A stretch of DNA of 44,088 nucleotides from an uncultured Nitrospiraceae bacterium (lineage in GTDB: Bacteria; Nitrospirota; Thermodesulfovibrionia; Thermodesulfovibrionales; Dissulfurispiraceae), in the NCBI GenBank assembly GCA_947085205.1, contig CAMTVO010000034.1, positions 1-44,088 on the forward strand, in the 5' to 3' direction. The notes under the pieces were generated by a model, which was not told the origin of the DNA, searched no databases, and was given only the letters and a program-made list of their open reading frames with translations. How positions within the stretch are numbered: the first letter of the stretch is position 1; every line of letters begins with the position of its first letter. The position numbers were made by a program, and so were the translations under genes. Shown here piece by piece: positions 4,803 through 24,035 of this stretch.

Positions 4803-4806
4803 ATAT

Positions 4807-4849
4807 GCCGGGATAGCACAGTGGTAGTGCAGCTGATTCGTAATTAGCA
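4807..4849 (+). repeat. attL: 5' half of tRNA-Thr (direct repeat of 23964-24006)
   Basis: 4807-4844 is identical to 23964-24001 (38 bp), followed by one mismatch and 4 more matching bases. There is no T-arm or 3' acceptor strand. Confidence 0.95.
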
Positions 4850-5154: not shown

Positions 5155-5269
5155 TATTTTAGATAACCTATATATTACCACATCTTTTCATAAAAAATCA
5201 AGCATAGAAAAACATAGGTTTTTCAATGACTTACAAGAGCGATAAAAATATGCGTGGATATTGACAGAT

Positions 5270-5285
5270 TGGCATGGGTTTTGCT
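5270..5285 (+). promoter_or_regulatory. Sigma-54 (-24/-12) promoter
   Basis: TGGCAtgggttTTGCT has exact GG-N10-GC spacing. An IHF-like TTTCAAtgacTTA lies at 5221-5233. Confidence 0.65.
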
Positions 5286-5693
5286 AATATATTTATATCG
5301 CCTTTGGCGAGAATATCAAAATAAGTAGTAAAAGGGGGCAGAAAGAGAGAAAGGCGGAAAAAATAGAGTATGCCGCCCAGGCTGATTGAGAGCGATAGGG
5401 ACGAGGGTGCTGGTGACACCCGCAGCGCTCCGTAAAGTCGGAGTTCACCACCCAAGGTTGTGACAGGGCACACAGTACTCATACAGACCCAAAAAAAAAC
5501 TGTATGATAGCAGGCGCAAAAGGGCGAGGCGCCAGCGAAATAAGCCCAAATCAAAAAAGTTCAAATCAAAGGCACACAGGACATCCTGAGTGCACCTAAA
5601 AAGTCATAGCGCACACCGCGCGGAAAAATCAAAAACACGGAGAAGTAAAGTAGTGCAGTAGCCTTTCACCTTTCATGCCTCGAGAGAGGAAAC

Positions 5694-6254
5694 ATGAAAG
5701 CAACAGCAGCAGACACCAGGATCGATGACACTAGGATCGACGTAGACGATTTTTTCGTAAAAAACTACAACAGCCTTGCAAGATATTGCCATGCACATTG
5801 GAACGGGTCGGGTCAGGATGTATTGCACGGGGCGTGGGAAAAAGCACGTAAGAGGTATCAGGACATCAATTTCGACCTGTTCACTGACCTTGCGCTTGAG
5901 GCCTCAAGGGAAAAGGCATACTGGTATCCAGGCCGGGACGGGATGATGGTTATCGTCCCACGCACAGAGACCACGCGGAAACGGCTTGCAACACACTTCG
6001 CAGCAGGCGATGCAGCAGCGAAAGACTACAGCGTCACGGATGAGATGACAACGAGAGAGAGGAAAAAGTGGATAAAAAAAATAACAAGCCTCAAAACAAC
6101 AGGTATGACAAACGCGGAAATAATTGCAGCGCTCCAAACCTCGGGACTGAGACGCAGAGCGCAGCTAAAGGCAGAGGCAGAAAAAGAAGAAAAAGAAAAC
6201 CTGAACCTCTTTTCTGAAACTGAAAATGCATATATATCAGAGGAGGTGGAATAA
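5694..6254 (+). CDS. Hypothetical protein with possible ECF sigma-factor-like regions
   Basis: RBS GAGAGGA. FFVKNYNSLARYC..SGQDVLHGAWEKA resembles sigma region 2, and MTTRERK...GMTNAEIIAAL resembles region 4. Similarity was judged by eye only. Confidence 0.45.
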   Translation: MKATAADTRIDDTRIDVDDFFVKNYNSLARYCHAHWNGSGQDVLHGAWEKARKRYQDINFDLFTDLALEASREKAYWYPGRDGMMVIVPRTETTRKRLATHFAAGDAAAKDYSVTDEMTTRERKKWIKKITSLKTTGMTNAEIIAALQTSGLRRRAQLKAEAEKEEKENLNLFSETENAYISEEVE

Positions 6255-7258
6255 TGTCAGGTAACAACACATACGCAAGGGGCGGGAACACCGCCCCTCA
6301 GGCTATACAACAGCAGGCAGAGGACGCGCTAAAGAAAATAGAAAAAACACGGGCAGAAATGCAGACGCTCTTTCATGCATACTACTCTGGTATATTACAT
6401 TTTCCTTTCCTGTTCGACCAGCTCATATATCGCAATACAATCAATATCCTTGACGGCCCGGGCAGCGCAGGCAAGTCCACGCTTGCCTTGCAGCTTGCAC
6501 TTGCCACGATTTTCCAGCAGCCATTCTTGTTGCCTTGCTTTTCTCACAGAAGGGAAGAAATAGGGGTTGATATATCGAATGTGATATATGTGACCAATGA
6601 AAACGAGAACCCCAAGGAGATAATGGTTTCACGATTAGCAAGCATGGCGCAAGCAATGAATGTAGACTGGGAAGACATAAATAAACATTTCTCAATATTT
6701 TACACCGAAAATTGCCTGACGGAAAAGCTTTTTGGGACTATCACGCCTACTGCTGCATACACCACGCTGCAGAGGGCAATCCAAAAATACCAGCCGGACC
6801 TTGTAATTCTGGACAATCTATCAAACCTTGCCGGAATAGAGGAAAACTCAAACGCAGAGGTTAACACATTCTATTCCTATCTGCTGAAACTCAAGACAAC
6901 GATACTGATACTGCACCACCACGCTAAAAGCGACATAACGAACGGCGCCGGGGAGACCACGCCACGCGGGGCAATCGCGATAAGGGAAAACGCACGCTGC
7001 AGGCTAGTATTGAAGAAAGACGTATTAGCAATAGAAAAAGCCAATTTTTCTCAATACGACCAGCACTATATACCACTTGCAAGGAGAGACGGCGCATTTT
7101 TTGCTGCAGTGCCGGAACCGCTTACATCGGATGATTTGAAAGAAATTGACATTTCAGACGAAACCAAAAATAACGGCAATGGCAATGGCAATGAAAAGAA
7201 AACCAGCAAGAAAAAAAGAAAGGAGGACTTATATGTCGGAGAATTTGAAGTGCTATAA
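6254..7258 (+). CDS. RepA-type (AAA_25, RSF1010 RepA-like SF4) helicase
   Basis: Walker A GPGSAGKST, Walker B PDLVILDNL, ENSN, ILILHH.K and RGA.AI...AR motifs. RBS AGGAGG. Confidence 0.8.
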   Translation: MSGNNTYARGGNTAPQAIQQQAEDALKKIEKTRAEMQTLFHAYYSGILHFPFLFDQLIYRNTINILDGPGSAGKSTLALQLALATIFQQPFLLPCFSHRREEIGVDISNVIYVTNENENPKEIMVSRLASMAQAMNVDWEDINKHFSIFYTENCLTEKLFGTITPTAAYTTLQRAIQKYQPDLVILDNLSNLAGIEENSNAEVNTFYSYLLKLKTTILILHHHAKSDITNGAGETTPRGAIAIRENARCRLVLKKDVLAIEKANFSQYDQHYIPLARRDGAFFAAVPEPLTSDDLKEIDISDETKNNGNGNGNEKKTSKKKRKEDLYVGEFEVL

Positions 7259-7979
7259 TGACGTAGAAATATACCGAAGATTTCTCAAATATCCTTTCGG
7301 GCTGCCAAAGAGAAAAGGCATATCTCATTATGTCAAGCACATACTGAACAACGGACGAATTGAGTATAAGGCACCTGATCCAATCGGAACAGAGGACACA
7401 GAAGTGCTATACACACTATTTACCTTAATCCAACAAGGCAAGACGATGATTACATTGTCCAACACCGAAAAAATACCGGTGACGTGCGTGGAAACCACCG
7501 TACAGGATATCGCTAAGGAACTCAACACTCACAATTACCAGCGCGTGCTGGATAGCCTCAGAAGACTGAAAGGACTGTCAATGCACTGCTACTATGGAAA
7601 GAAAAAAGAAGTCCACATCAATATCATATATCGCATTGAGTATTTCCGCGACACCGGCGGGATAAGAATACTGATAGCAGAGGAAATATACCGTGCCCTA
7701 ATGAACAAGACGCTCACAATCTCATATGACACATATATTGACCTGTCACCCACGGCCAAAAATCTGTATACATATCTTACTACCAACTCAGGGGACACGT
7801 TCAAGGAAGATACTATGATTGAGAGGGCAGTAATACTTGCCTCAAGAAAATGCGATGCACAAGTGAAACTCCGTGAGGCAGTAGACGATCTGAAAAATAA
7901 TGGCATAATACGGGATTATTCCAGACGGAAAAAAGATGGCACATGGTATATCACTATCGACAGGAAGAGGCAGGAGTAA
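7233..7979 (+). CDS. Putative plasmid replication initiator (RepC/TrfA-like winged helix)
   Basis: ATG at 7233 follows AGGAGG. The gene overlaps the helicase and is followed directly by iterons. The basic protein has DIAKEL..NYQRVLDSLRRL and LSPTAKNLY segments typical of Rep winged-helix domains. Confidence 0.6.
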   Translation: MSENLKCYNDVEIYRRFLKYPFGLPKRKGISHYVKHILNNGRIEYKAPDPIGTEDTEVLYTLFTLIQQGKTMITLSNTEKIPVTCVETTVQDIAKELNTHNYQRVLDSLRRLKGLSMHCYYGKKKEVHINIIYRIEYFRDTGGIRILIAEEIYRALMNKTLTISYDTYIDLSPTAKNLYTYLTTNSGDTFKEDTMIERAVILASRKCDAQVKLREAVDDLKNNGIIRDYSRRKKDGTWYITIDRKRQE

Positions 7980-8003
7980 CCCTGTCTCTTTTCATCCGTG
8001 TTT

Positions 8004-8160
8004 TTCCCCCGTGGTCGTAAAATGCACCCGCCAAAATCCCCGCAAAGCATTGATATTTATTGTTTTTCTGTCATTCAGTCGATTACCCCCTACTTTCCCC
8101 CGTGGTCGTAAAAAACCTTCCCCCGTGGTCGTAAAATGCCCCTCAAAAAATCCCCGCAAA
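8004..8160 (+). repeat. Iterons / candidate oriV
   Basis: TTCCCCCGTGGTCGTAAAA (19 bp) is exact at 8004, 8095 and 8118. Copies 1 and 3 extend to a 43-bp imperfect repeat ending AAAATCCCCGCAAA. Confidence 0.8.
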
Positions 8161-8212
8161 ACCTTGCCAGTGCTTGATTTGCTGGAAATTGCCTTAACCC
8201 CCCCCATAGAAA

Positions 8213-8320
8213 CTCTCTCCCATAGAGGGAGAGAGAGAGAAAGCGATTTTTTTCTGAAGAAAAATCGCTTTCTCTCTCGTAAGACATGCATGTGAAGGGC
8301 ATCGAACCCTTCACATGCAT
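8213..8320. repeat. Three adjacent inverted repeats
   Basis: 9-bp stem at 8213-8235, perfect 19-bp arms at 8233-8251/8260-8278, and perfect 14-bp arms at 8286-8299/8307-8320. Confidence 0.9.
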
Positions 8321-8741
8321 TAATGACCGGAAAACATATGTATCGCAGAAAAACATATGCTCTCTAGAATACCTTTGTTTTCAACAATGAAGTGATTTTT
8401 TTTAAACAGATAAACGCTGTAAAAAAAAACAAAGGTTTGCCTAGTATTCCCGGAATATATACCTTTTTTTTTTAAAAAACAATCGCTTTCTAGTATACCT
8501 ACCTCATAAAAAATATAAAAAGACTTCCCATTAAAGAAAGAACAGACAAAAGGCAAAGACAAAGGCAGGAAAACAGAAAAGCGTATGTATTACTTACATC
8601 CCCCTATCTTTCCTTTTTGGGCGCAGTTTTTTGGAAAGCTTAATGCATATATATAGTGAGATGACGTAAGAACATGCACAAAGGGAGATGGAGAATGCAG
8701 CGATATAAGAATGTTCAAATAAGCAAATAAAGGGGAAATAT

Positions 8742-11700
8742 ATGGTAAGCATTACGAATGTTAGCAGTGGGCAGGCGTCGACCTATTACCAGCGCGACAA
8801 CTATTACACACGTGCCGATGGACAATGGCAGGGCGCGGGCGCCTCGGCATTAGGACTATCCGGGGCGATCCAAAAAGATGATTTTGAAAACCTCATACAT
8901 GGCCGGGACCCGCAGGGTGACCGGCTTATAGCCGGCGGCGGCGAAAACCACGAACACCGCGCAGGCGTGGATCTCACTTTTAGCGCGCCGAAATCGGTAT
9001 CGGTGCTGCATGAAGTTTCAGGAGACCAGCGGATACTGGACGCACACAACCGGGCGGTGGAGAGGACACTACAATACGTGGAAGAACATTATACTCAGGC
9101 ACGGCAGACGCAGGACGGCGTAACTGAACGCGTCGATACCGGCAATATGGTCATCGCAAAATTTACCCACTATGTCAGCCGGGAGCTTGACATGCAGATA
9201 CATACGCACGGTGTAGCAATGAACATGACACAGCGAGAGGACGGTCAATGGCGGGCATTATCGAACGAGGAATTATATAACAACAAAATGCACATCGGGC
9301 AGATATACAGGAACGAATTAGCGGTAGAACTGAAAGAAATTAACTACGCGATTAAGACCGACAGTAGAGGTTTTTTTGAAATCCAGGGCATAGACCAGAA
9401 AGTGCTTGACGAGTTTTCCAGACGCAGCGAACAGATACAGTCAGCAATGGAAGACCTCAAAAAACAGTATCCAGACGCCAGCGAAAGCAAGATCAAGGAA
9501 ATGGCATGTCTCGACAGCCGCGTGGCCAAGAAAGATGTAAACATGGACGATGTAAGACAAACGTGGCAGGAAAGGCTTGAAAAACTTGGATATACCAAAG
9601 AACAGATACAGGCATCCGTCCAAAAGGCAGCGGAAGAAATGAGGGCAATTGAGAGGGGTCAAGGGCATGAGAACAACCCCGAAAAGACAGCAGGCGCAGG
9701 AGTTGCAGCGGCAGGCAGAATAATTACAGAACAGGAAAGCGTGTTTTCACGTAAAGACCTTCAGGATACTGCAATGAAGATGTCGATTGGTGATGCACGC
9801 ATAGACGACATCGAAAGGGCGATAGAGAGGGCGGAGAGAAACGGAGACCTCATAAGATTGGATGAGGGCAAATATACCACGCATGAGATGATACGGATTG
9901 AGAATGACATCGTGGAGAAAGTAAGGGACGGACACGGCAAGGCAGAGGCACTGGACGCAGAGAAAGTGCAGGCAGGTATACAGGAATACGAGAAAGAAAA
10001 AGGCTTTTACTTATCCGAGAACCAGAAAAACGCAATATCTCATATCCTCACCAGCAAGGACAGCGTAATAGGCATACAGGGCGATGCAGGGACAGGAAAA
10101 ACCACAGCATTGCAGGTAATGAGAGAGATAGCATCCAGGCATGGGTATGAAGTCAAGGGATATGCATACACAGGCAAGGCAGCGGAAGAGATAGAGAAAG
10201 CAAGCGGTATCCAGTCGCGGACATTACACTCATTCCTTGGAGAAAAAACAGAGGCAACAGCAGGAACAAAGGAGATATGGGTAGTGGACGAGGCCTCAAT
10301 GATGGGCAGCAGGCAGATGCACGGCCTGCTGGAGCGGGCGGAGGCAGCAGGGGCAAAAGTGGCAATGGTGGGGGATACCAAGCAATTGCAATCCATCGAG
10401 GCCGGCCGGATGTTTCAGAAGCTCCAGGAGACCGGCGACATGAAGACAGTGAGAATGTCCGAAGTCCAGAGGCAAAAAACAGAAGATTATAGAGATATAG
10501 TAAAAGACATATCCGAAAAGCGATTTGAAAAAGCGATGGAAAAACTTGAAAACACAGGAAAGATACATGAGATAGCAGACAGGCAGCAGAGGATTGACGC
10601 CATCGTGAAAGACTACACGGACAGCAAGAAAGACACAATCATAGTCACAGCACTGAACAAGGACAGGAATGAGATTAACGACCGCATCCATTCTGAACTA
10701 ATGAGACAGGGTAGGATAGGACAGCAGGAATATGAGTTTAACGTCAGAGAAAGCAAAAACTTGTCACCGATTGAAAAGCATTTTGGACAGAATTATGAGA
10801 AAGGCGACATAGTAATTGCGAACCATGCAGGCATCATGGGCAGGGCAGGAACAGAGGGAAAAGTAACCAGAGTAGACCATCAGAACCACAGAATTGAGGT
10901 TGAGACCAGAGGGAAAAATAGAGAGAGTGTCAAACATGAGATAGACCTGAAAGAACACGGACAGAACCTTGCAGTATACCGGGAAAAGCAGCAGTCATTT
11001 TCACAGGGAGAAAAGGTTGTCTTTCAGAAAAATGACCGCAGTCTTGGAGTGAAAAACGGGCAGACAGGAACGATTGAAAGTATAGATAAGGACGGTAGGG
11101 CAACCGTGAAAATGCACGATGGCCAGGAGAAGAAAATCAACCTTTCCACACAATACAATTACATCGACAGGGGCTATGCAGTTACATCATACAAGAGCCA
11201 GGGACAGACAGCAGACCGGGTGATTTTCCATTCAGTAGCTACCGAAAAATCAGAGGGCAGAGGGACGAATTATAACGAGGCTTATGTCGCCGCTACCCGA
11301 GGCAAGCACGACCTCAAAATTTACACGAACGACAAACAGAAATTCACCGAACAAATGAAAGTAGAACAGCAGAAAACCAGCACTTTGGATTATGAGAAAA
11401 CAGCAGAATGGAGAAGTGAGAAAGCAGAAAAACAGACAGGCAGAAAAACAGAAAAACACGAAAGCGCGAGGTCAGAAAAACACGAAAGCAGAAAAGCAGA
11501 AAAGCGGGAATATGAAGACAGAAAAGCGCAAAAACAGCATGGCACAGGAGTGACAAAATTACCTGACAGGGCACCAGGGAAACAGAGCTGGTGGGATAGA
11601 GCGCTCCCCGGCGGAAAAATTGAAATATCTCCACTGGTCGGAACAATAAAAGAATCTCAAAAGGGTATTTCATTTTATACAACGCGGGAGGGTTTTTTTG

Positions 11701-12275
11701 GGGACAAAGTAAAAAAGGGAAAATACATATCAGGGGAAAAGAAAGGAACTCAATTTAGGAATGAATACCGTGTTGACCAGGGGCTTTTTGGGAAAAAGCT
11801 TAAAGGCACATACGTGGAAAAACGTAAGGACGGAACTATAGTGGTAAGCAAGTATGAATATCGCCAAAAAGACACTTTATCATCTGTGTTTTTCGGGCGC
11901 GGGAATATCAAGCCAAAAATGGAAATGACTAAGTCCGAAACATACATTATTAGACCGGATGAGGCGCGGAAGTGGGCAGGTAAGGATGTGCAGAAATTGG
12001 AAAAAACCCTGAAAGCGAAATACGCGGAAAAAATAATTAAGAAAGCCGAAAAAATGGGAAAAGGGCAATACAAGGAAAGCGCAAAAACGAAAGAGCCAAC
12101 CACGCTGAAAAGCTCAGGAGTGAATGAGAAAGTTTACCGACACCACGAGACTGAAAACGTAAAATCCCGCGGAGCGGAAAGAGAGAAAACAGCAGGAAGT
12201 GAAAGCGCAAAATCACAAGCACAGGAAACCTCAAAATCGCAAGGGCAAAATCAAAACCAAGGTCGTGGCAGGTAG
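8742..12275 (+). CDS. trwC: MOBF conjugative relaxase-helicase (TrwC/TraI family)
   Basis: YY-x4-YY (YYQRDNYY), DLTFSAPKSVS, H..SR..D.QIHTH, EFSRRS, Walker A GDAGTGKT, DEASM and YAVTSYKSQGQT. Confidence 0.96.
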   Translation: MVSITNVSSGQASTYYQRDNYYTRADGQWQGAGASALGLSGAIQKDDFENLIHGRDPQGDRLIAGGGENHEHRAGVDLTFSAPKSVSVLHEVSGDQRILDAHNRAVERTLQYVEEHYTQARQTQDGVTERVDTGNMVIAKFTHYVSRELDMQIHTHGVAMNMTQREDGQWRALSNEELYNNKMHIGQIYRNELAVELKEINYAIKTDSRGFFEIQGIDQKVLDEFSRRSEQIQSAMEDLKKQYPDASESKIKEMACLDSRVAKKDVNMDDVRQTWQERLEKLGYTKEQIQASVQKAAEEMRAIERGQGHENNPEKTAGAGVAAAGRIITEQESVFSRKDLQDTAMKMSIGDARIDDIERAIERAERNGDLIRLDEGKYTTHEMIRIENDIVEKVRDGHGKAEALDAEKVQAGIQEYEKEKGFYLSENQKNAISHILTSKDSVIGIQGDAGTGKTTALQVMREIASRHGYEVKGYAYTGKAAEEIEKASGIQSRTLHSFLGEKTEATAGTKEIWVVDEASMMGSRQMHGLLERAEAAGAKVAMVGDTKQLQSIEAGRMFQKLQETGDMKTVRMSEVQRQKTEDYRDIVKDISEKRFEKAMEKLENTGKIHEIADRQQRIDAIVKDYTDSKKDTIIVTALNKDRNEINDRIHSELMRQGRIGQQEYEFNVRESKNLSPIEKHFGQNYEKGDIVIANHAGIMGRAGTEGKVTRVDHQNHRIEVETRGKNRESVKHEIDLKEHGQNLAVYREKQQSFSQGEKVVFQKNDRSLGVKNGQTGTIESIDKDGRATVKMHDGQEKKINLSTQYNYIDRGYAVTSYKSQGQTADRVIFHSVATEKSEGRGTNYNEAYVAATRGKHDLKIYTNDKQKFTEQMKVEQQKTSTLDYEKTAEWRSEKAEKQTGRKTEKHESARSEKHESRKAEKREYEDRKAQKQHGTGVTKLPDRAPGKQSWWDRALPGGKIEISPLVGTIKESQKGISFYTTREGFFGDKVKKGKYISGEKKGTQFRNEYRVDQGLFGKKLKGTYVEKRKDGTIVVSKYEYRQKDTLSSVFFGRGNIKPKMEMTKSETYIIRPDEARKWAGKDVQKLEKTLKAKYAEKIIKKAEKMGKGQYKESAKTKEPTTLKSSGVNEKVYRHHETENVKSRGAEREKTAGSESAKSQAQETSKSQGQNQNQGRGR

Positions 12276-12312
12276 CGGTTATTTCCGTTTTATTTCCCTA
12301 AAGACCAATCGG

Positions 12313-12368
12313 AAGGAGAGGGTAGAATTATCGCTAATCACTCTAATACTACCCTCTCCTTTTTTTTA
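12313..12368 (+). terminator. Intrinsic terminator after relaxase
   Basis: AAGGAGAGGGTAG / CTACCCTCTCCTT stem followed by a T-tract. Confidence 0.75.
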
Positions 12369-12481
12369 TCGCACACTGTCAATTTACATCGACAGAGTGC
12401 TTTAAACGACAGGGTAGTTGTATTGAGAGGTAGGCTAAAATTGCCTTACCTCAGACACAAGACCAGTTTTCCCGCTTTAGT

Positions 12482-12527
12482 ATCACACCCAACGCAACCT
12501 TCGTTTGCAAGGTGCGTTGGATGTGAT
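12482..12527 (-). other. Candidate oriT (MOBF nic-like site in an inverted repeat)
   Basis: The minus strand reads TGCGTTGGGTGT^GAT, resembling the F (TGCGTGGGGTGT^) and pKM101 (TGCGTTAGGTGT^) nic sites. It lies upstream of a RHH gene. Confidence 0.65.
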
Positions 12528-12709
12528 TGTTTTCTAAGGTTTTAAAAGGCTACCTTTTACCTATCTTTTTAGCCTCAAATCAAGAATTATCAATCTTTTG
12601 AGAGGTTACCACTGTTTTTATCCTCAAAGGATACCAAAGATACCATAGTGAAAAATGAAAATGCATATATATAAGAGAGTTAGATTTTACACTTAAGGAG
12701 GTAAGGAAA

Positions 12710-13084
12710 ATGGCAAGGCAGGTAAATCTGAAATTTAGGGAAAACGAATATGAGGAACTTGAGTTTATGGCGAGGTCGGCAGGGTTAAAAGTGCCTGCAT
12801 ACATCCGCCAAAAACTCAAAAGCGCACTCAAGGAAGAGGCCAGAGATGGTGCATTGGTAATCCGCATGATTGAGACAATGGAAAAACTCCAAAACCATCT
12901 TTACCTGACTGGTGGAAAGCAGGAAATGCAGGGTGACGGTGAGGTAAAAAAGCTTGCAATGTTTATGTCCAAAATGGCTAAAGAAATTTTTTCTCAGGTC
13001 ATCATAGACAAAGACAAAAGAAAAGCTTTTTACGAAAAGTTTACGGCGGAAGAGTTGGAGCTATTTGAGAGAGGGGGTGACTAA
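12710..13084 (+). CDS. Ribbon-helix-helix protein, probable relaxosome accessory factor (TrwA/MobC-like)
   Basis: QVNLKF-ENEYEELEFMARSAGL-VPAYIRQKL RHH pattern, RBS AAGGAGGT, and position next to the oriT candidate. Confidence 0.7.
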   Translation: MARQVNLKFRENEYEELEFMARSAGLKVPAYIRQKLKSALKEEARDGALVIRMIETMEKLQNHLYLTGGKQEMQGDGEVKKLAMFMSKMAKEIFSQVIIDKDKRKAFYEKFTAEELELFERGGD

Positions 13085-13887
13085 TGCGATATTTCAAGCT
13101 TTCAATAGTCATCGCTACCGCGGTTTTTCTTGCATGGCATACTCAGATTTTCATTGCAAGCATAGAGCCCAACCCGGTGTTTTCTTGGTTAGCCTCTATC
13201 CTCATAGAATGCATGATTATAGCTCTCGCTTTGCAGTTCCGGCAGAGGAAGACATCTCTCATTTTTCTCATACCGCTATATCTCATTTCCACGATTGCAG
13301 CCAGCGCAAGTTTCATTGTTCAAAATGAGGGCGAACTGGAGAAAATGCTTAGTCAAAAGCAGCAGATTGAACTACTTTCAGATGACCTGAAAGCCACTAA
13401 AGAGGCATATAGCCATGGCCAAAAATACGTGACCAGGACACTGGAAAGGGAGAGAAGACTCCGGGACGCGATGCTCCAAATTTCAGGGCAGGCGAGTGGC
13501 AGAATTGCGACAGGCAAGGCAGTAGTTTTTCTGATTTTAGTGGTGGTCATGCAGGCGGTTTCAGTGTATCTCGCATCGACTGTTACAGCGTCACACCGTA
13601 ACAGTGTTACAGGGCGTAACAGTAACAGTGTAACAGCGTCACATAGCAGCGTAACAGGGGGAAAAGCAGAAGATGTTACAGCACATGATATACCTGTTAC
13701 GACTACTCAAAAGGCAGAGGAAAACGCACAACGGACAGATACGAAAAATGACATACAGGCAAATATGAAACCACTTGAAATGCAGATAATTGGAATGCGA
13801 AATCAGGGATTGTCATATCGTCAGATTGCGAGAGAATTAGGCATTTCAACAATGACAATTTCAAGAGTTCTAAAAAGGCAAAAGTGA
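13084..13887 (+). CDS. Multi-pass membrane protein with C-terminal HTH
   Basis: About 4 hydrophobic segments, a coiled coil, a VT-repeat linker and GLSYRQIARELGISTMTISRVLK. Confidence 0.75.
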   Translation: MRYFKLSIVIATAVFLAWHTQIFIASIEPNPVFSWLASILIECMIIALALQFRQRKTSLIFLIPLYLISTIAASASFIVQNEGELEKMLSQKQQIELLSDDLKATKEAYSHGQKYVTRTLERERRLRDAMLQISGQASGRIATGKAVVFLILVVVMQAVSVYLASTVTASHRNSVTGRNSNSVTASHSSVTGGKAEDVTAHDIPVTTTQKAEENAQRTDTKNDIQANMKPLEMQIIGMRNQGLSYRQIARELGISTMTISRVLKRQK

Positions 13888-13941
13888 AAAAGCAAAATGC
13901 ATATATATGTTGTGATTTTAAGATTAAAGGGGGTGATAACA

Positions 13942-14250
13942 ATGAGCAAAGCAATAGCAGATGAAATCAGGGCAGAGGCAATAAAGCTGATTGAGTTTGA
14001 GTTTCAGAATAACTCGTCACACTTAAGAGAACGTGCTATTAAGTTATTCAAAATAGCATATCGGCTTGAACAGGCTTTAGCAAAGCCTAACATGAGCATG
14101 ACCATTAAAACCGAACACAGCGCACTAAAGCAGGAGATAATCGAAATGCGAAATCAGGGTAAATCATACAGGCAAATATCGAGGAAATTAGGAGTGCCAA
14201 CGTCAACGGTTTACAAAATTTTTAAGCGCTATGTATGCGAGAAAATTTAA
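13942..14250 (+). CDS. Small HTH protein
   Basis: ATG 13942 after GGGGGTG. C-terminal MRNQGKSYRQISRKLGVPTSTVYKIFK. Confidence 0.75.
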   Translation: MSKAIADEIRAEAIKLIEFEFQNNSSHLRERAIKLFKIAYRLEQALAKPNMSMTIKTEHSALKQEIIEMRNQGKSYRQISRKLGVPTSTVYKIFKRYVCEKI

Positions 14251-14276
14251 CATCACATCAGAAAGGAGATAAGAAA

Positions 14277-14519
14277 ATGGCAGTCAAGGAAGTAACAATC
14301 AAGGTAATGGACGGACACTTACGGTGTCCAGCGTGTTCGGGTTTTCTCTACGACGCTATACACGCAGGGGATAGGAGATGGACATATCTGTATCGTGACA
14401 GCAAGCACTGCAGCAAGTGCGGGCGTGACTGGAAGATAACAAGACGGAACGGTAAGTGCACGATATACCAGTTTCCAATCCGAGAGGATGGGGTGGTAGC
14501 AAAGGGGGTGATAGTATGA
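14277..14519 (+). CDS. Small zinc-ribbon protein
   Basis: RBS AAAGGAG. CPAC...CSKC motif. Confidence 0.65.
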   Translation: MAVKEVTIKVMDGHLRCPACSGFLYDAIHAGDRRWTYLYRDSKHCSKCGRDWKITRRNGKCTIYQFPIREDGVVAKGVIV

Positions 14520-14686
14520 AATGCGACACTTGCCATTTTGCAGTCGAAGGCGTAACGCCGGAACATGACAACTGCATGGATTGCATAAGACGGGCAGAGA
14601 CGGTGCAGATGATCTTGATTTTTCTGGTCCCGTTATCTTTCATCGCAGGATATACATTCAAGACAATCGAGAAATTTATCGACTGA
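14516..14686 (+). CDS. Small Cys-rich protein with C-terminal TM segment
   Basis: ATGA overlap with the previous gene, RBS GGGGGTG, CDTC..CMDC and a hydrophobic tail. Confidence 0.55.
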   Translation: MKCDTCHFAVEGVTPEHDNCMDCIRRAETVQMILIFLVPLSFIAGYTFKTIEKFID

Positions 14687-14748
14687 AAAATCAAAATGCA
14701 TATATATGTATGAGAACATTTCACATCAGAAAAGGGGGTGATGAAAAC

Positions 14749-14931
14749 ATGGGAAGAAAGACGCCGGACCAGCTCCGGGCTGAGGCCCGGCGCCTGATGG
14801 AACTTGCGAGGCAGCTTGAGGACCAGCAGGCGGTAGGAATAGGCAGGGCGATCCTATCCAGAAAGGACGAACTTGAGAAAATGGACGCCGGGGAATTAAA
14901 AACTTTTTTGATTGAAATTTTGAGCAAATAA
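14749..14931 (+). CDS. Hypothetical 60-aa helical protein
   Basis: RBS GGGGGTG before ATG 14749. It lies downstream of a motif copy. Confidence 0.6.
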   Translation: MGRKTPDQLRAEARRLMELARQLEDQQAVGIGRAILSRKDELEKMDAGELKTFLIEILSK

Positions 14932-14948
14932 AAAAGGAGGTAAAATTA

Positions 14949-15323
14949 ATGTCAGACTTAATCGCAAAACTCAAAGAAAAAGAACAGGAAAAGGGCAAAA
15001 AAAGCATATTCTGGAGACCTAATCCCGGGGACATTCTTGAAGGCAGGGTGCTAGCAATCGGTAGCACAATCACAAGTTTTGGCGATGGCGACTACGTGGA
15101 GCTGGAAACCACAGACGGACAGAAAATCACAATTTGGTTGAACTCAATTCTAAAAAAACTAGTGGAGCAGGAAGACGTATCCGAGGGCGACCGGGTGGCT
15201 ATCAAGTTCGTGGGCGTGGTGACCAGCTCAAAAAACAAGAAACGGGCATACAAGGATTACGTCTTAGTCAAGGACACAGAGGCCACAGAGGACGCACCGG
15301 AGACTGAACCGGAGGCAGCTTAA
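14949..15323 (+). CDS. Putative OB-fold single-stranded DNA-binding protein
   Basis: W.P.PGD.LEG beta-rich core, GDRVAIKFVG and acidic C-tail DTEATEDAPETEPEAA. RBS AGGAGGT. Confidence 0.55.
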   Translation: MSDLIAKLKEKEQEKGKKSIFWRPNPGDILEGRVLAIGSTITSFGDGDYVELETTDGQKITIWLNSILKKLVEQEDVSEGDRVAIKFVGVVTSSKNKKRAYKDYVLVKDTEATEDAPETEPEAA

Positions 15324-15339
15324 TTTTTACCAGTAGGTA

Positions 15340-15375
15340 AGTTAGTGCTAACTCACAAGCAAGTTAGCACTAACT
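15340..15375. promoter_or_regulatory. Double palindromic operator AGTTAG-N2-CTAACT x2
   Basis: 15340-15353 and 15362-15375 are exact reverse complements, and each is itself palindromic. They lie upstream of the coupling protein RBS. Confidence 0.65.
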
Positions 15376-15404
15376 ACCATATCACAATCACATAGGAGGT
15401 TAAC

Positions 15405-17060
15405 ATGCAATATAAAGAGAATAGAGGGTATAAAGGTTTTGAGACGTGGTTTCACTCGATACAAATGGAAGCGAAGATGTATATATATACATTTCTTATC
15501 GTCTTGCTCTTACATCTTGCTATCCCGGTTCTTTACCTTTTCATTTTCAAATTTAACTTGGTGGAGATTTTGTTTTTTACGATTTCTAATTTTCGCTTTG
15601 ACGTGCTGCCGCGCGTGTTTAAAGTCATGATTAAATACGCGTGGATTATTTTCGTTCTTGCTACTCCAATATGGCTGCTATACCCTGCCATGCTCCGCAA
15701 GTGGAAAAGCAAGTCAAGCGAGATGATGAAAGACCAGCACTTACGAGGCAGCAAGCTGGTATCCGAGGATGAACTCAAAAAGCTCATGAAAAACGAACAA
15801 TCATCGTTGCAGCTTGGCAGAATACCATTACCCACGAGGGCGGAAACAAGGCATTTCCTCGTTACTGGGCGTCCGGGCACAGGAAAGACAACGCTCATGA
15901 ATTCTGTTATTTCCAAGCTCCGGGATAGAGGTGAAAAGTGTCTGATATACGATTTCAAGGGCGATTATTTATCGCACTTTTATCGTGCTGAGACTGATTA
16001 CATCTTCAATCCACTTGATACCCGCTCAATGCACTGGTGCTTGTTCGATGAGATACGGATGCACCCGGATATTGACAGCATTGCAACGTCCCTAATCCCG
16101 CCGGCGAACGACGACAAATTTTGGACAGATGCGGCGCGGGACGTATTTGCATCGATACTTCACTATTGCGTGAAAAGCGGAGAAACAACGAACGCGGACA
16201 TATGGAAATACGCTAGCTATGCAGAGTCGCCTATGCTTGAACTCATGCAGAACGCAGTAGAACAAGGCATAGAAGAGGCAAAAAGAGCAACGGGATACTT
16301 GCAGGGATATGAGAAAGGCTCAAAAGTGGCATCTGATGTTCTCTCTACTATGAGGCAATATACCAATGCTTTTTTCTACACGAGGCATTTAGGAAATGAT
16401 TTCTCAATCAAGCGGTGGTTAGAAGAAGATGGATCATCCTTTATTTTTCTCACAAATTACAGCAATCTACGGGACACGTTGAAACCGCTGCTATCCTTAT
16501 TCCTTGATACTGCTTTGAAACATCTCTTATCATTGCCTGAAAACTTGAACCGGCGCAGGTTTGTGATTATCGATGAGTTTGCGTCACTTCAACGGTTAAG
16601 CTCACTAGTTCAGGCGCTTGAGCAGGCACGCAGTAAAGGCGGGTCAATATGGATAGCCACGCAGGACGTGGGGCAAATCCAGAAGATATACTCCCCGGAA
16701 ACCACTAACACAATCGTGAACACGTCAAACACGCTGATATCCTTTGCACTGAACGATCCACTATCTTCTGATTTTCTCAGCAGGGCATTTGGTGAGCGTG
16801 AGATCCTCGAAACAGATGAGAGTATATCAATGGGTCCCGCAGACCAGCGCGACGGCCTGAACATCCAGCGGCGCAGGAAAACAGAAAAGCTGCTACTACC
16901 AAGCGAGTTTATCACCCTGCCCGATTTGAATTTTTACATCAAGATGCTTTCCTATCCCATTACACAAACCCGCGTGGACATAACCCGACTGGAAAAAAGG
17001 CAGGACAGCTTTGTGCTCAATCCGATTTTTCACCTAAAATCGGAAAACGAAAATGGATAA
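15405..17060 (+). CDS. trwB: Type IV coupling protein (TrwB/TraD family)
   Basis: Two N-terminal TM segments, HLRGS, Walker A GRPGTGKT, IYDFKGD, FNPLD.R, Walker B IIDEFASL and ARSKGG..IATQ. Confidence 0.93.
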   Translation: MQYKENRGYKGFETWFHSIQMEAKMYIYTFLIVLLLHLAIPVLYLFIFKFNLVEILFFTISNFRFDVLPRVFKVMIKYAWIIFVLATPIWLLYPAMLRKWKSKSSEMMKDQHLRGSKLVSEDELKKLMKNEQSSLQLGRIPLPTRAETRHFLVTGRPGTGKTTLMNSVISKLRDRGEKCLIYDFKGDYLSHFYRAETDYIFNPLDTRSMHWCLFDEIRMHPDIDSIATSLIPPANDDKFWTDAARDVFASILHYCVKSGETTNADIWKYASYAESPMLELMQNAVEQGIEEAKRATGYLQGYEKGSKVASDVLSTMRQYTNAFFYTRHLGNDFSIKRWLEEDGSSFIFLTNYSNLRDTLKPLLSLFLDTALKHLLSLPENLNRRRFVIIDEFASLQRLSSLVQALEQARSKGGSIWIATQDVGQIQKIYSPETTNTIVNTSNTLISFALNDPLSSDFLSRAFGEREILETDESISMGPADQRDGLNIQRRRKTEKLLLPSEFITLPDLNFYIKMLSYPITQTRVDITRLEKRQDSFVLNPIFHLKSENENG

Positions 17061-17085
17061 TGCATATATATGTAGGAGGTGCAAC

Positions 17086-17391
17086 ATGAAAGAAATAATA
17101 ATAATAAGGTTACTTAGCCTTGCACTTGCAGGTGCGGGGTTAGGATATGGGTTGAATGAGATTAACCAATTGCCACATAAGCAAGAAATTCCAGACTTCC
17201 AACAGGTAATTAAGCCTGTAGTATCTCAGATATCACAGGCAGTATCAGCAGCAGCAGCAGAGGAAAGGAAAACCCAATCAATACTGATAACTAAGTATAA
17301 GCCTGATGAATTTTATCAGGCACAAGCACGCGTTGATATATGTAGCTATTACATTGACATGTCCGACTGCCCAAAAGGAGGTGAAAACTAA
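17086..17391 (+). CDS. Hypothetical membrane-anchored/secreted protein
   Basis: AGGAGGT RBS before ATG 17086. Hydrophobic N-terminus. Confidence 0.65.
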   Translation: MKEIIIIRLLSLALAGAGLGYGLNEINQLPHKQEIPDFQQVIKPVVSQISQAVSAAAAEERKTQSILITKYKPDEFYQAQARVDICSYYIDMSDCPKGGEN

Positions 17392-17711
17392 TGTCAGGAT
17401 TGATGAAGATACTTGTCATTACCGCGCCGGTGCTTGCTTTGCTCTTATTTTATGTCATTACAAAGCAATCGCAAATGGACACTGAAATGAAAAAAGAGGA
17501 CGCAAGGTTTGAACGCGAGTGGGCAGAGTTTAATAAGGACTTTTCAACGTCAGGCGACCGGCAGAAATATGAACAGCGGGCTCAGCAGGCGGAGCAGGAG
17601 TTCCAAGAGCTGAAGAAAAAGGAAAAGGAGAAAGAAGAAAAGACCGAGCGGATTGAAAAGGAACTCGAGAAGGCAATAGAAGAACACGGCAAGGACGCCG
17701 GGAAAAAGTGA
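17391..17711 (+). CDS. Hypothetical N-terminal TM plus coiled-coil protein
   Basis: RBS AGGAGGT, TAATG overlap with the previous gene and an E/K-rich coil. Confidence 0.7.
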   Translation: MSGLMKILVITAPVLALLLFYVITKQSQMDTEMKKEDARFEREWAEFNKDFSTSGDRQKYEQRAQQAEQEFQELKKKEKEKEEKTERIEKELEKAIEEHGKDAGKK

Positions 17712-17813
17712 AAAAGCAAAATGCATATATATATTGTAGTACGGGGCAAATAAAATAAGGGGGCGGAAGGCGTCCTTGACGCCGGCCCTCTACAAATGCC
17801 CAAGGGGTGAAAA

Positions 17814-18221
17814 ATGAGACGCACAAAAGTAGTATCGCCTATCTTCATCAAGAAAGGCAAGGGAAATGACGGCAAGGTATTGGTCGTCATGTTGGTATTA
17901 ATCTTAATGGTTGCACTGTTTAGTATGGCTGCAACCGCAAAGGCAGCGACAGAGGCGCCAGTGGAAGATATAGTAGAGAATAAGGCAACGTGCACAGTGA
18001 CATATTTTACAGAAAAAGGTGGAAAATATATCACAAAAAAACATGCAGCGAATATCAACGAAATATTGACAGTACTACATCGCAACATTGCTGACGAGGT
18101 AACGACAAAGGACAGTAAGTGGGGAGAAATAGGGGTTGACTGCGACATCGACAGACCTGTCTATGATGAAATGGCAGGAAGAACGGTAAGGGGTTTTGCC
18201 TTTATTTTTTCTTTGAAGTAA
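17814..18221 (+). CDS. Hypothetical exported protein
   Basis: RBS GGGGTG. Hydrophobic segment followed by an AxA cleavage-like site. Confidence 0.65.
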   Translation: MRRTKVVSPIFIKKGKGNDGKVLVVMLVLILMVALFSMAATAKAATEAPVEDIVENKATCTVTYFTEKGGKYITKKHAANINEILTVLHRNIADEVTTKDSKWGEIGVDCDIDRPVYDEMAGRTVRGFAFIFSLK

Positions 18222-18274
18222 AATTTAACGGGGCGGTTTCCGCCCCTTAATATCAGAAAGGAGAAAGGGCGACC

Positions 18275-19465
18275 ATGAAAAGAGTAATTGCAAGTATTGT
18301 ATCATTTTTGGTAGTGATAATTACTACTAATACAGAGGCAGGCTATTGGAGCATTCACTGCGAGAATGCCTCATGTGTAGCCTCTCAGGGTGCGCTGAAA
18401 GTATACTGGATGGCAGCAGGAATAAATAATATATATCAGGGCAAACTTACCGGTGTAGAGGGAATACCTATCTCAATCGAAGACTATCAGGCGGTAGAGA
18501 AAAAGATTGAATCCACTATTGAAAAGACCATAACACGCAAGAAAGGATCAGACACCAATGTTAAGGCTGATGCTCCAGAGGGCACGGGCGGACCATCGGC
18601 AGGCAGAACAGACAGCAAAGAAAACCTATTTTCCAAAAAGCGTTCAATGTCACAGAGTAAGACAATGGGTAAGAAAGTCAATGTGGATTACACACTTGCC
18701 TTTGTCGAGTGGCTGGGAGACACAAGATTTATTTTAGATAAAAGCATTAAGCGATATTGGGTAGCAGCAGAAATGGCTTTAAATGCGTATAAAAACGGAA
18801 ACATAGAGGAATTAATAGAACAGTTTTTCATCGCAAGAAACGCTGAGGCAATAGAGGACGTGGCCGTGAACGCAAAGCTTACGGACGAAACTAAAGCATT
18901 GATAATGACTAAGTATATAGGGCTTACAAGATTTCCTTTAGCTCTACCAACAGTGAGATATGCACTCGCAAGCCAAGCGGTGTATAACATTAGTAATAAT
19001 ACGGAAGAGGCAGTGAAGGTATCCAATGAATATAAACAAGATATGGAGAATCTTTCGATGCTAATAAGACCAGGGCAGACAGCACTGAAATTGTATAAGT
19101 CCAACCCCGAGCTTGCTTTTCTTAAATGGTTAGCTGATAATCATCGTTTTGTGAAGAATATCAATGATATGCCTTTAGAGGACAAATATCTGGTGGCCAT
19201 TAGTGTTTTTAGGGAAATCAAAGCTGACCTTTTGGATGACGCAGATAAAAGCTTTTTTAAAGAAGAAAGGCAGGAATTCGAGGCAGCAATCAAGGCAAAG
19301 GATAAAAGCGTTCAGATTGTAACAGTCAAGGGCAGTCCAATCCCTGTAATTCCTGTAATTTCAATTGTGGCAGTATCAGCAGTGATAATCGGAGCGATAT
19401 ATATTGGAACCCGGGCTAACCGGAAAAAGAAAAATAACACGCAGGAGGTAATCAATGAGGGTTAA
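18275..19465 (+). CDS. Hypothetical protein with signal peptide and C-terminal TM anchor
   Basis: 396-aa ORF with an N-terminal signal, a C-terminal hydrophobic helix and a basic tail. Confidence 0.75.
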   Translation: MKRVIASIVSFLVVIITTNTEAGYWSIHCENASCVASQGALKVYWMAAGINNIYQGKLTGVEGIPISIEDYQAVEKKIESTIEKTITRKKGSDTNVKADAPEGTGGPSAGRTDSKENLFSKKRSMSQSKTMGKKVNVDYTLAFVEWLGDTRFILDKSIKRYWVAAEMALNAYKNGNIEELIEQFFIARNAEAIEDVAVNAKLTDETKALIMTKYIGLTRFPLALPTVRYALASQAVYNISNNTEEAVKVSNEYKQDMENLSMLIRPGQTALKLYKSNPELAFLKWLADNHRFVKNINDMPLEDKYLVAISVFREIKADLLDDADKSFFKEERQEFEAAIKAKDKSVQIVTVKGSPIPVIPVISIVAVSAVIIGAIYIGTRANRKKKNNTQEVINEG

Positions 19466-20111
19466 CAATATGTTAGTGTCGTGTGTGCTTTTTGTTTTTT
19501 TTGCGGCGGCGACTGCACACGCTATTGAGATTAGTGAAGACCTTAAAACAGCCCTGCTTAAAATGATAGAAAAAGCTACAAAAGTTGATGTGGTAATGGA
19601 TAGAGAGGATATAAGAAAAGAAGTATTACATTCAGCGCTTATAACTGCATCTATGCGTGTATCTGCTGATAGGTTATTAGATGAATACAGAGATGGAAAA
19701 TTAACATTTCTTGAAATTTTAATGACTCCTCCCTCAGGAGATGTTCAAATGCCCGTAGTTGAGAAAACTTTATGTTTTCTGTTTTTGAAAGACATAGCTC
19801 TACTACAGGGAGACAAAAATAAGGCTAAAAAATACGTAAACATGGCAGAAAAAAATGCACAGGACGGGATAAATTACTATTCTAAAATAGGGCAAAAAGG
19901 CAGTATTATAGCTATGTATAATCTGTATATGTATAACGAGATTTTAAAAGCATTTGCGCCTTCTTTTGCTGCTCCAATTGGACAGAAGGATATAGAAAAT
20001 GCTAAACGAATTATATCGGAATCGGATTATTTACGAGAGCGGAGCCTTGCTTTAGAGAATGCGATAACACAGTGGAATAAAAACATTTCAAAAATTCCTA
20101 AAAAACCGTAA
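19455..20111 (+). CDS. Hypothetical secreted helical protein
   Basis: RBS AGGAGGT. Signal peptide ending AHA. Confidence 0.7.
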   Translation: MRVNNMLVSCVLFVFFAAATAHAIEISEDLKTALLKMIEKATKVDVVMDREDIRKEVLHSALITASMRVSADRLLDEYRDGKLTFLEILMTPPSGDVQMPVVEKTLCFLFLKDIALLQGDKNKAKKYVNMAEKNAQDGINYYSKIGQKGSIIAMYNLYMYNEILKAFAPSFAAPIGQKDIENAKRIISESDYLRERSLALENAITQWNKNISKIPKKP

Positions 20112-20133
20112 TCAATCCACCTCTCAATCCCCA

Positions 20134-20166
20134 CAGGACGGGCGCTTAAGCCTGTCCTTTTTTTTC
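20134..20166 (+). terminator. Intrinsic terminator
   Basis: AGGACGGGC..GCCTGTCCT stem followed by a T-tract. Confidence 0.75.
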
Positions 20167-20198
20167 TTATAGGCAAAGAGCAAATGCATATATATCAC

Positions 20199-20768
20199 AT
20201 GCGCACGCTTGTGATAATATTTTTCCTGCTGATACCTATGACAGCGGAATGCACAACAATCATAATCCCCGGCAGTAATACCGGCGCCGAACAAATGGCA
20301 TCCTTGCAGGCGAATATCCCCGCAGCTATCGTCATATATCCTGTTACGATGATGCCGTTATCTGCCGCGGCAGAAAGCATAAAATCGCAATTAGACGCTC
20401 AAAAAATTGAAACCGTTGAAACCATAATCGGCTATTCATGGGGAGGGCTAATTGCTCGCGAATTATCCGGCCGATATCCTAAACTGCAAGTCAAGAAAAT
20501 AATCCAGATAGGCACGCCGAACGGCGGATATAAGCACGCTCCGTCATTCATTTTTCGCACCTTGCAAACAAGCGCTGATATATACATAATCGCCGGAGCG
20601 TCCAGTTCAAGAAAATGGTATCTAACGGGGTTAAACGACGGCACGGTAGACCTCGACTCGGTCCTGTCTATACCATCGAAAGAACACGTTATTTTTAATC
20701 TCAATCACGCCGAACTGGTCCGCGATATTGCCGTCATTCAAAAAATTATTCAGTGGATGAAAAAATAA
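20199..20768 (+). CDS. Small secreted alpha/beta hydrolase (lipase/esterase-like)
   Basis: GYSWGG nucleophile elbow, IGTPNGG, NDGTV (Asp) and LNH (His). Signal-like N-terminus. The start could be 20184 or 20199. Confidence 0.8.
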   Translation: MRTLVIIFFLLIPMTAECTTIIIPGSNTGAEQMASLQANIPAAIVIYPVTMMPLSAAAESIKSQLDAQKIETVETIIGYSWGGLIARELSGRYPKLQVKKIIQIGTPNGGYKHAPSFIFRTLQTSADIYIIAGASSSRKWYLTGLNDGTVDLDSVLSIPSKEHVIFNLNHAELVRDIAVIQKIIQWMKK

Positions 20769-20772
20769 AACG

Positions 20773-20841
20773 CATGCTCGCACTTTCAGCACCCAAAAGT
20801 GCGAGCATGTAAGCACTTTTTGACCCCAAAAGTGCGAGCAT
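20773..20841. repeat. Combined inverted and direct repeats (AAAGTGCGAGCAT)
   Basis: 14-bp inverted repeat at 20773-20786/20796-20809, and 17-bp direct repeat CCCAAAAGTGCGAGCAT at 20792 and 20825. Confidence 0.85.
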
Positions 20842-20911
20842 TTTCAGTCCAGAAAAAAACGAAAAAGCAAAATGCATATATATGTATATCTTATTTCAAG
20901 GGGGTGTGTAA

Positions 20912-22717: not shown

Positions 22718-22747
22718 TTTACAAAGAGAGGTAAAACTATGTATAAT
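22718..22747 (+). promoter_or_regulatory. Sigma-70-type promoter of integrase
   Basis: TTTACA-N18-TATAAT. Confidence 0.5.
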
Positions 22748-23963: not shown

Positions 23964-24035
23964 GCCGGGATAGCACAGTGGTAGTGCAGCTGATTCGTAA
24001 TCAGCAGGTCGAGGGTTCGAATCCCTTTCCCGGCT
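23964..24035 (+). tRNA. tRNA-Thr(CGT), contains attR
   Basis: Full cloverleaf: GCCGGGA/TCCCGGC acceptor, GCAC/GTGC D-stem, GCTGA-TTCGTAA-TCAGC anticodon arm and TTCGAAT T-loop. CCA is not encoded. Confidence 0.97.

Follow-up and report, generated by a model that had tools for sequence, protein, structure and literature searches.

What reads a word of 13 letters that stands nine times, always in the same orientation, ahead of the gene blocks of one mobile element? The question is raised by contig C34 (CAMTVO010000034.1) of an uncultured Nitrospiraceae bacterium. The whole contig, 44,088 nucleotides, was analysed and is called the window below. It carries a 19.2-kb integrative element, with all genes on the + strand, and the nine copies sit within this element. 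The answer that we consider probable, judging from sequence comparison and structure prediction, is that each of the nine AATGCATATATAT copies forms the -10-type core of an element-specific promoter. The copies are predicted to be read by the host RNA polymerase together with a sigma-like protein of 186 residues encoded by the first gene of the element.

The 12-letter core of the word, ATGCATATATAT, occurs exactly at 6226, 8643, 12661, 13897, 14696, 17060, 17721, 20184 and 20872, in all nine cases on the + strand. In 100 dinucleotide shuffles the mean number of matches was 0.01 and no shuffle reached nine. An A precedes the core in every copy, and the resulting 13 letters are identical in 9/9. 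Five copies (12661, 13897, 14696, 17721 and 20872) have the extended form GAAAAA(G/T)(C/G)AAAATGCATATATAT, and the consensus over all nine is tGaAAAagcAAAATGCATATATAT, with a conserved stretch longer than the 12-bp core. The distances from core to start codon, in the order of the copies, are 28, 99, 49, 45, 53, 26, 93, 15 and 40 nt in the table of open reading frames (ORFs). These positions, the constant A, the five longer copies and the distances had all been given in an initial annotation of the window, and our exact matching reproduced them. That annotation had also seen no copy in the DNA flanking the element, which can now be said more broadly: the genome searched (65 contigs, 1,885,442 bases, 89.7% complete) has nine forward matches to the 12-mer and no reverse match, and all nine are inside the element. 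If one mismatch is allowed, the 13-mer has 20 matches in the genome, namely the nine exact copies, one more in the element and 10 elsewhere; ten composition-matched shuffled 13-mers gave 1-7 matches each. A search for the 23-nt extended motif elsewhere gave 3 single matches in species-representative genomes and 7 in metagenome contigs, none of which lay next to a homologue of an element protein. The sequencing runs listed as containing this DNA are four DNA metagenome runs, all of a single study, with no RNA run among them. The 13-mer lacks self-complementarity and keeps a single orientation in all nine copies, so that it does not have the form of a symmetric operator. No hairpin is formed by the word and its flanks.

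Every gene block of the element has a copy before it, the exceptions being the first gene and the integrase gene. Copy 1 (6225..6237) lies within the last codons of the sigma-like gene (5694..6254) and precedes genes for a helicase (6254-7258) and a Rep-like protein (to 7979). Copy 2 (8642..8654) stands before the gene of a TrwC relaxase-helicase (8742-12275), and copy 3 (12660..12672) before those of a NikA-like ribbon-helix-helix (RHH) protein (12710-13084) and a membrane-anchored helix-turn-helix (HTH) protein (13084-13887). At copy 4 (13896..13908), where the TGA stop of the upstream gene falls within the extended motif, the genes that follow encode a 102-residue HTH protein (13942-14250) and a zinc-ribbon protein (14235-14519). 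Copy 5 (14695..14707) leads a block with genes for proteins of 60 residues (14749-14931) and 124 residues (14949-15323) and for the TrwB coupling protein (15405-17060), whose stop codon is overlapped by copy 6 (17059..17071). Two small membrane or coiled-coil genes (17086-17711) come after copy 6, while copy 7 (17720..17732) precedes 17814-18221, 18275-19465 and 19455-20111, which encode signal-peptide or membrane proteins without a Pfam family. Copy 8 (20183..20195) ends 3 nt before the ATG of an alpha/beta hydrolase gene (20199-20768) that has no ribosome-binding site, and copy 9 (20871..20883) opens the block 20912-22671, which includes an HTH_17 excisionase-like gene (21477-21770). Pfam assigns the AAA_25 helicase, the Rep-like protein (weakly), the TrwC relaxase, the NikA-like RHH protein, the HTH proteins, TrwB, the alpha/beta hydrolase, the HTH_17 excisionase-like protein and the integrase. 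Most gene labels of the initial annotation are thereby confirmed, but for its single-stranded DNA-binding protein (14949-15323) Pfam gave nothing at E <= 0.01. Of the host-type sigma-70-like sites in the element, the two best stand before the two genes that lack a copy. Ahead of the sigma-like gene it is TTGACA-18-TAATAT with a TG (5261..5290, + strand, 10/12 matches, a match to the consensus only), and before the tyrosine integrase gene (22806..23882, + strand, Pfam Phage_integrase 3.7e-39) it is TTTACA-18-TATAAT (22718..22747, + strand, 11/12 matches).

Some copies lie very close to the gene that they precede. The ribosome-binding site GGAGGTGG begins 4 nt past the core at copy 1, and AGGAGGTG begins 2 nt past it at copy 6. 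In a sister element, found on contig C9 of the same genome, the ribosome-binding site GGAGAGGTG begins 1 nt past that element's own word, GCATATATA. Since the ribosome-binding sites at these places begin 1-4 nt past the cores, transcription should start no more than about 4 nt from the core. A separate promoter would have no space between word and gene, and hence the word is either a start-proximal promoter element or a part of the transcript. We infer that transcription begins about 4 nt past the core, which would place its G and C at about -13/-12; this agrees with the start at 3-8 nt after the core that had been expected earlier. The arrangement GCATATATAtcacATG before the hydrolase gene is kept in the window and C9 elements, whose hydrolases are 83% identical, and the hydrolase transcript at copy 8 is predicted to be leaderless. 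A terminator-like hairpin of 9 pairs, 6 of them G-C, followed by the T-run TTTTTTTCTT, lies 26 nt before copy 8 (20135..20158, + strand), and a hairpin with a 17-bp stem (20773..20809, no strand assigned) separates the hydrolase gene from copy 9. Because of these two structures, new transcripts would be needed at copies 8 and 9.

The word does not look like a promoter of the host. Host tRNA genes have ordinary TTGACA-N17-TAtAAT promoters with a clear TTGACA box. The core lacks the TAnnnT register (A at 2, T at 6) in 8/9 copies, and a scan for a TTGACA-like box 16-18 bp before TAnnnT flags only copy 7, where the register arises through the flank. Upstream, the core is directly abutted by an A-rich block, GAAAA..AAAA, with neither TTGACA nor a conserved box at the -35 position. 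Sigma-70-like sites are not enriched in the element (38, vs 34.5 +/- 5.3 in shuffles). Taken together, the restriction of the copies to the element, their placement on the gene strand ahead of gene blocks and the hairpins before two of them support the idea, proposed in the initial annotation, of a directional, element-specific transcription signal unlike the host consensus. Two other kinds of promoter were considered and rejected. The sigma-54 consensus requires an upstream GG; here a GC is correctly spaced from the predicted start, but A-runs replace the obligatory GG. The host has two sigma-70-family genes only (PF04542, TIGR02937), one of RpoD size and one of FliA size. With the -10 box of FliA (sigma-28) the core shares a partial resemblance, but the key central letters are not the same, and 6/9 copies lack the fixed upstream box.

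Is a signal of this kind found in other elements? TrwB homologues (E <= 1e-20) are present in 31 of 401 sampled genomes of the phylum, and the loci around them are related elements; a TrwB protein-pattern search of genome_contigs gave no close relatives. The second TrwB copy of the host genome is on contig C9. There the sister element (locus L072) spans about 18 kb, from about 8.5 to 26.5 kb of the contig, beside tRNA-Ala. Its relaxase is 67% and its membrane HTH protein 58% (57.6%) identical to those of the window element. It has its own 202-residue ECF-type (extracytoplasmic function) sigma as first gene and an 89-residue, region-4-only paralogue of this sigma (49% identity), but no helicase or Rep module.

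The initial annotation had proposed looking for conservation in related elements. What is found is that each has a recurrent gene-strand motif of its own, composed of GCAT and an AT-rich run. In C9 it is GCATATATA, with seven copies on the gene strand; in G338 it is TTGCATATATA, in G102 and G332 TGCATATATA, and in G290, G098 and G074 TGCATTAATW followed by ATAGWAGAG. The G324 element has genes on both strands, and its related motif is also on both strands, with an orientation that tracks the genes. The signal is therefore directional and linked to genes, which argues against a symmetric operator. In C9 and G102, whose proteins keep a match to sigma region 4, an A-run stands at a fixed 12-15 nt before GCAT. 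The cores of the window and C9 elements are nearly identical, and the two elements could cross-talk through them.

The short motifs of the relatives also occur in chromosomes. TGCATTAATW has 59 matches in G290; of the 31 sites displayed, only six, all within the element, are accompanied by the second block together with a ribosome-binding site and start codon, and the remaining displayed sites lie in coding sequence. TGCATATATA occurs 7-24 times in five relatives, and its count of 24 compares with 5-18 for nine variants. In the genome of the window TGCAT followed by five A or T is not enriched (360, vs 131-462 for 13 one-letter variants; two scrambles that contain CG gave 38 and 43). A host-wide signal was rejected on these grounds: the displayed chromosomal sites are coding, without a second block or start codon, and the counts were taken as background.

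If the host does not read the word in its usual way, what does? The best candidate is the 186-residue product of the first gene. A profile search of 1.84 billion representative proteins found 40 relatives, of 71-219 residues (alignment A3). A word-based homologue search returned the query alone, the ESM Atlas gave no usable match, and alignment A1 of the sigma-like proteins found nothing in viral_contigs. The AlphaFold2 model has a mean predicted local distance difference test (pLDDT) of 79.6, with four N-terminal helices above 90, and by structure comparison (VIA-align wide search) it is predicted to have the helical fold of sigma region 2 (sigma-2). The sister element helps to connect the family with known sigma factors. 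Its 202-residue protein scores 39.8 bits with Sigma70_r4_2 (cut-off 25.7), and its best sequence matches in the PDB are ECF and FliA-type sigmas, SigE first at E 0.0015. The family profile aligns with this protein at 93.6% probability and E 2.2e-7 (hhalign). These alignments make the 186-residue protein a homologue of the Pfam-supported ECF-type sigma that occupies the corresponding place in the sister element. When hhalign was used to compare the family with 20 bona fide ECF sigmas of the phylum's genomes, the result was 68.8% and E 4.5e-5, and the family's G.GEDV.HEA...RY...FSLF..L..EAAR stretch was paired with ECF regions 2.1-2.4. Sigma70_r2 is matched by 1/38 family members (4.3e-4), and the G102 homologue reaches 24.9 bits on Sigma70_r4_2, just under the cut-off.

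The family also follows the elements. By profile search, the elements in C9, G338, G340, G102, G098, G290 and G332 each begin with a gene of the family. Among the 401 sampled genomes nine have the sigma-like gene, all in the order of the host; eight of these nine are among the 31 with a TrwB homologue, though the genomes are kin and thus not independent. We also looked for a partner of the split-sigma kind. The 89-residue, region-4-only ORF of C9 has no counterpart in the 102-residue HTH protein of the window (E 4.6), and this candidate was rejected.

Several observations weigh against the proposal that the sigma-like protein reads the nine copies. Pfam gives nothing for the 186-residue protein even at E <= 10, the family profiles A1 and A3 brought up no sigma factor among PDB sequences, and region 4 has no match in the protein. 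This last absence lowers the case for membership in the ECF group, not that for a sigma-like function, because some sigma-family factors (gp55) lack region 4 as well; and, going by sequence, it fits a promoter without a -35 box. At the G324 locus no sigma-like gene was found, nor was one found in G074, G114 and G214, all of which are on short contigs. The conserved GAAAA block is only 7 nt from GCAT, which matches no standard -35 spacing. At copy 8 an in-frame ATG within the core (TTG in C9) could also start the hydrolase gene, which makes the leaderless reading uncertain. Finally, most sigma regulons are less strict than nine copies with 13 identical bp, and part of this identity could be due to recent copying rather than selection.

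Several alternatives can be suggested. The host RpoD itself might read the copies as TG-extended, AT-rich -10 promoters that lack a -35 box, perhaps with the help of an HTH protein on GAAAA..AAAA, leaving the sigma-like protein to serve elsewhere, for example in replication. The core does have TG and then an AT-rich run, the upstream A-tracts resemble an UP element, and the neighbours of the sigma-like gene are those for the helicase and Rep. The element also encodes two HTH paralogues that match Sigma70_r4 and HTH_23 weakly, and a GCAT plus AT-rich core common to elements of different host genera is what a conserved host reader would produce. Still, we find this explanation unlikely. The A-at-2/T-at-6 register is found in the core only at copy 7, the TG is shifted by one base from the register of any hexamer compatible with the bound on the start site, and the promoters before host tRNAs all have a clear TTGACA box. 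Neither does host DNA contain the word, and among the displayed sites of the abundant G290 10-mer the remaining promoter-like features are found at the six element sites only. Alternatively, the word could be an operator. The 102-residue HTH protein, the membrane-anchored HTH protein, the RHH protein or the excisionase-like protein would then bind it to repress or activate overlapping promoters, much as some plasmid global repressors do. That the element encodes several candidate DNA-binding proteins agrees with this, as does the perfect identity of the nine sites, which is typical of operators. Both ATGCAT and the AT-run are self-complementary, and the membrane-anchored HTH protein is conserved in the sister element, whose core is nearly the same. 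We nevertheless hold an operator to be quite improbable, for the 13-mer as a whole is asymmetric and its counterpart in G324 follows gene direction. Moreover, copies 1, 6 and 8 leave no space for a separate -10 box and start before the ribosome-binding site or ATG, and no regulator is common to all related elements (tblastn, E <= 1e-3).

The word might also act in RNA: polycistronic transcripts begun at other sites would carry it as a processing site, a stabiliser or a signal for translation. On the sense strand, the copies all stand just 5' of ribosome-binding sites, some within 2-4 nt, and AU-rich leaders can enhance translation. However, the distance to the ribosome-binding site ranges from 2 to about 80 nt, the hairpin and T-run before copy 8 would end upstream transcripts, and a long hairpin also precedes copy 9. 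Sigma-70-like sites, the possible upstream promoters, are not enriched, and the word folds into no hairpin with its flanks. We give this idea very little credence.

Returning to a sigma-like protein as the reader of the nine copies, the following scheme can be proposed. Host RpoD would transcribe the sigma-like gene from the candidate site at 5261-5290, the entry to the cascade, and the integrase gene from that at 22718-22747. The sigma-like protein would bind core polymerase and open the DNA at the nine GCATATATAT sites, whose G and C would fall at about -13/-12. With transcription beginning about 4 nt past the core, leaders would be very short at copies 1 and 6, and the mRNA from copy 8 would have none. 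The A-rich GAAAA..AAAA block may add contacts with the alpha subunits, with the short C-terminal helices of the protein or with one of the two HTH proteins. In this way genes for replication, the relaxase, the coupling protein, membrane proteins, the hydrolase and excision would be activated together. If correct, one small protein and one word of 13-24 bp join replication, transfer and excision genes in a single switch. It would also provide a compact and possibly orthogonal pair of sigma and promoter. Nitrospirota, the host phylum, has almost no genetics.

The C-terminus of the sigma-like family suggests a further possibility. The bacterial clamp-binding consensus is given as QL[SD]LF in a report on phage Mu (PNAS 2026, PMC12867686). 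The pattern Q..[LF][FW] occurs within the last 30 residues of 25/42 family members, while shuffled tails average 0.76 and body windows have it in 0/165, and in sequence this tail matches the clamp-binding consensus. The protein of the window has NLNLF at residues 169-173, which is not Q-first; the nine residues after it come from translation of the proposed promoter and the ribosome-binding site that belong to the next gene. A complex predicted between residues 120-186 and host DnaN (contig C60) scored 0.33, vs 0.02 for the best control, which amounts to weak support. That mark was reached by 116/157 solved complexes and 2/215 mismatched pairs; at 0.60 or under, 18/157 solved complexes and both mismatches reach it. 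Agreement of contacts over three runs was at least 76%, with a partner pLDDT of at least 63. The pass may reflect likeness to solved clamp-peptide complexes.

We therefore offer only as a tentative suggestion that the element runs a replication-coupled programme like that of T4 late genes. A sigma with region 2 alone would read -10-type promoters while its QxxLF-like tail rides the host beta clamp, loaded when the Rep protein and helicase of the element, or nicks made by its relaxase, start synthesis. Transcription of all nine operons would in this case be limited to the copy that is excised and replicating. Should this be true, it would be the first clamp-tethered sigma outside lytic phages, and a new sigma family, in the sampled genomes confined to integrative elements of one Nitrospirota order.

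The remaining features of the element can be described briefly. Its left end, attL (4806..4848, + strand), matches the 5' portion of tRNA-Thr(CGT) exactly over about 44 bp, seen also as a partial tRNA match at 4807-4866 (28 bits). The intact tRNA-Thr(CGT) gene, with attR in its 5' part, is at 23964..24035 on the + strand. An Rfam scan of the element found the tRNA and the tRNA fragment and nothing else. The duplicated portion is thus the 5' and not the 3' part of the tRNA, and the intact tRNA is at the integrase end, for which reasons the element supplies the upstream promoter region of the tRNA. This region has TGTTATAAT before tRNA-Thr in the window and TTGACA-N17-TTAAAT before tRNA-Ala in the C9 element. 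Integrase, attachment repeat at a tRNA, relaxase and coupling protein, the hallmarks of an integrative element, are all present. Among the 37 ORFs scanned, of which the largest unassigned has 396 residues, no Pfam match to a VirB4-class ATPase was found, and the element hence looks mobilizable rather than self-transmissible, or else it has a pore that went unrecognised. The five genes in 17086-20111, for small membrane, coiled-coil and signal-peptide proteins without a Pfam family, lie 3' of the coupling protein gene, where a mating-pore module is expected. Two of the five are conserved in the C9 element, the 396-residue protein at 76% identity.

Between the host-type site at 5261-5290 and the sigma-like gene is a G+C-richer stretch of 398 nt (5296-5693) with a folding energy of -114.5 kcal/mol (z -3.49 vs shuffles) and without a match in Rfam. 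The stretch may serve as a regulatory leader, or it may encode a small RNA that controls the switch. Right after the Rep-like gene, at 8001-8136, there are three direct repeats of TTCCCCCGTGGTCGTAAAA, 91-100% identical, which are candidate iterons of a replication origin, and a perfect 19-bp inverted repeat follows them at 8233-8278. The 385-bp gap 3' of the relaxase gene contains inverted repeats at 12313-12361 and 12482-12527 (arms of 18 and 15 nt), candidates for an origin of transfer or for terminators. A near-identical C-terminal HTH (..EII.MRNQG.SYRQI.R.LG..) is shared by the products of 13084-13887 and 13942-14250, the former with several predicted membrane helices and the latter soluble, and copy 4 lies between their genes. 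The element is flanked by an ABC/HlyD/outer-membrane efflux set and by sugar-nucleotide enzymes, and the host is therefore a diderm. In the right flank (24300-44088) the G+C content is low, 0.33-0.43 vs a genome average of 0.433, and sugar-nucleotide and polysaccharide genes are all on the + strand. Runs of TTCACTA-like heptamers stand before many host tRNA genes (e.g. C12 4931, C16 27158, C43 48522).

We know other examples of mobile elements that encode a sigma factor with private promoters, namely Tn916 (Sig7-8), plasmid pBS32 (SigN) and phages, and this much of our proposal is not new. New are an unannotated family with sigma-2 only, nine dispersed and letter-identical putative promoters over nearly the whole element, the clamp-binding-like tail and the phylum. 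Routine annotation would miss the family, because it has no Pfam model and only 40 relatives among the 1.84 billion representative proteins. A literature search of incomplete coverage found no paper that joins a clamp-binding motif, a sigma factor and conjugative elements, and none on a sigma factor encoded by an integrative and conjugative element together with its promoter.

A close likeness is to Sig7-8 and Psig7 of Tn916 (bioRxiv 10.64898/2026.10.01.756105). There, too, an integrative transfer element has its own sigma activity, which switches on excision and transfer genes independently of host sigma specificity. Tn916 has one main promoter with read-through round the excised circle, in contrast to nine dispersed, near-identical putative promoters here. 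Sig7-8 is made of regions 2 and 4 as two proteins, while only the region-2 fold is evident in the window protein. The host of Tn916 belongs to Firmicutes and ours to Nitrospirota, and the likeness to Sig7 and Sig8 is drawn from their description. SigN of pBS32 is likewise a sigma encoded by a mobile replicon with its own promoter set on that replicon. It differs in that it is described as induced by DNA damage and resides on a large plasmid, and again it is likened by description.

T4 gp55 is a small and strongly diverged member of the sigma family, with a domain homologous to region 2, -10-like promoters that lack a conserved -35 box and a clamp-binding motif on a linker. The window protein is likewise small, diverged and predicted to have a region-2 fold, and it may share the other two traits. 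T4 has its own trimeric clamp and the co-activator gp33, whereas here the clamp would be host DnaN; no gp33-like gene was identified in the element, though no gp33 or gp55 sequence was compared. The tail in the window is NLNLF rather than Q-first, and its bearer is an integrative element, not a lytic phage. MuC of phage Mu is a transcription factor of a mobile element that has near-consensus clamp-binding motifs and requires the host clamp for transcription; unlike the window protein it is not sigma-like but an activator acting with sigma-70 (PNAS 2026, PMC12867686). Replication-coupled transcription has so far been established by experiment only in T4 and, recently, in Mu. If the tail described here is functional, it would extend to integrative elements.

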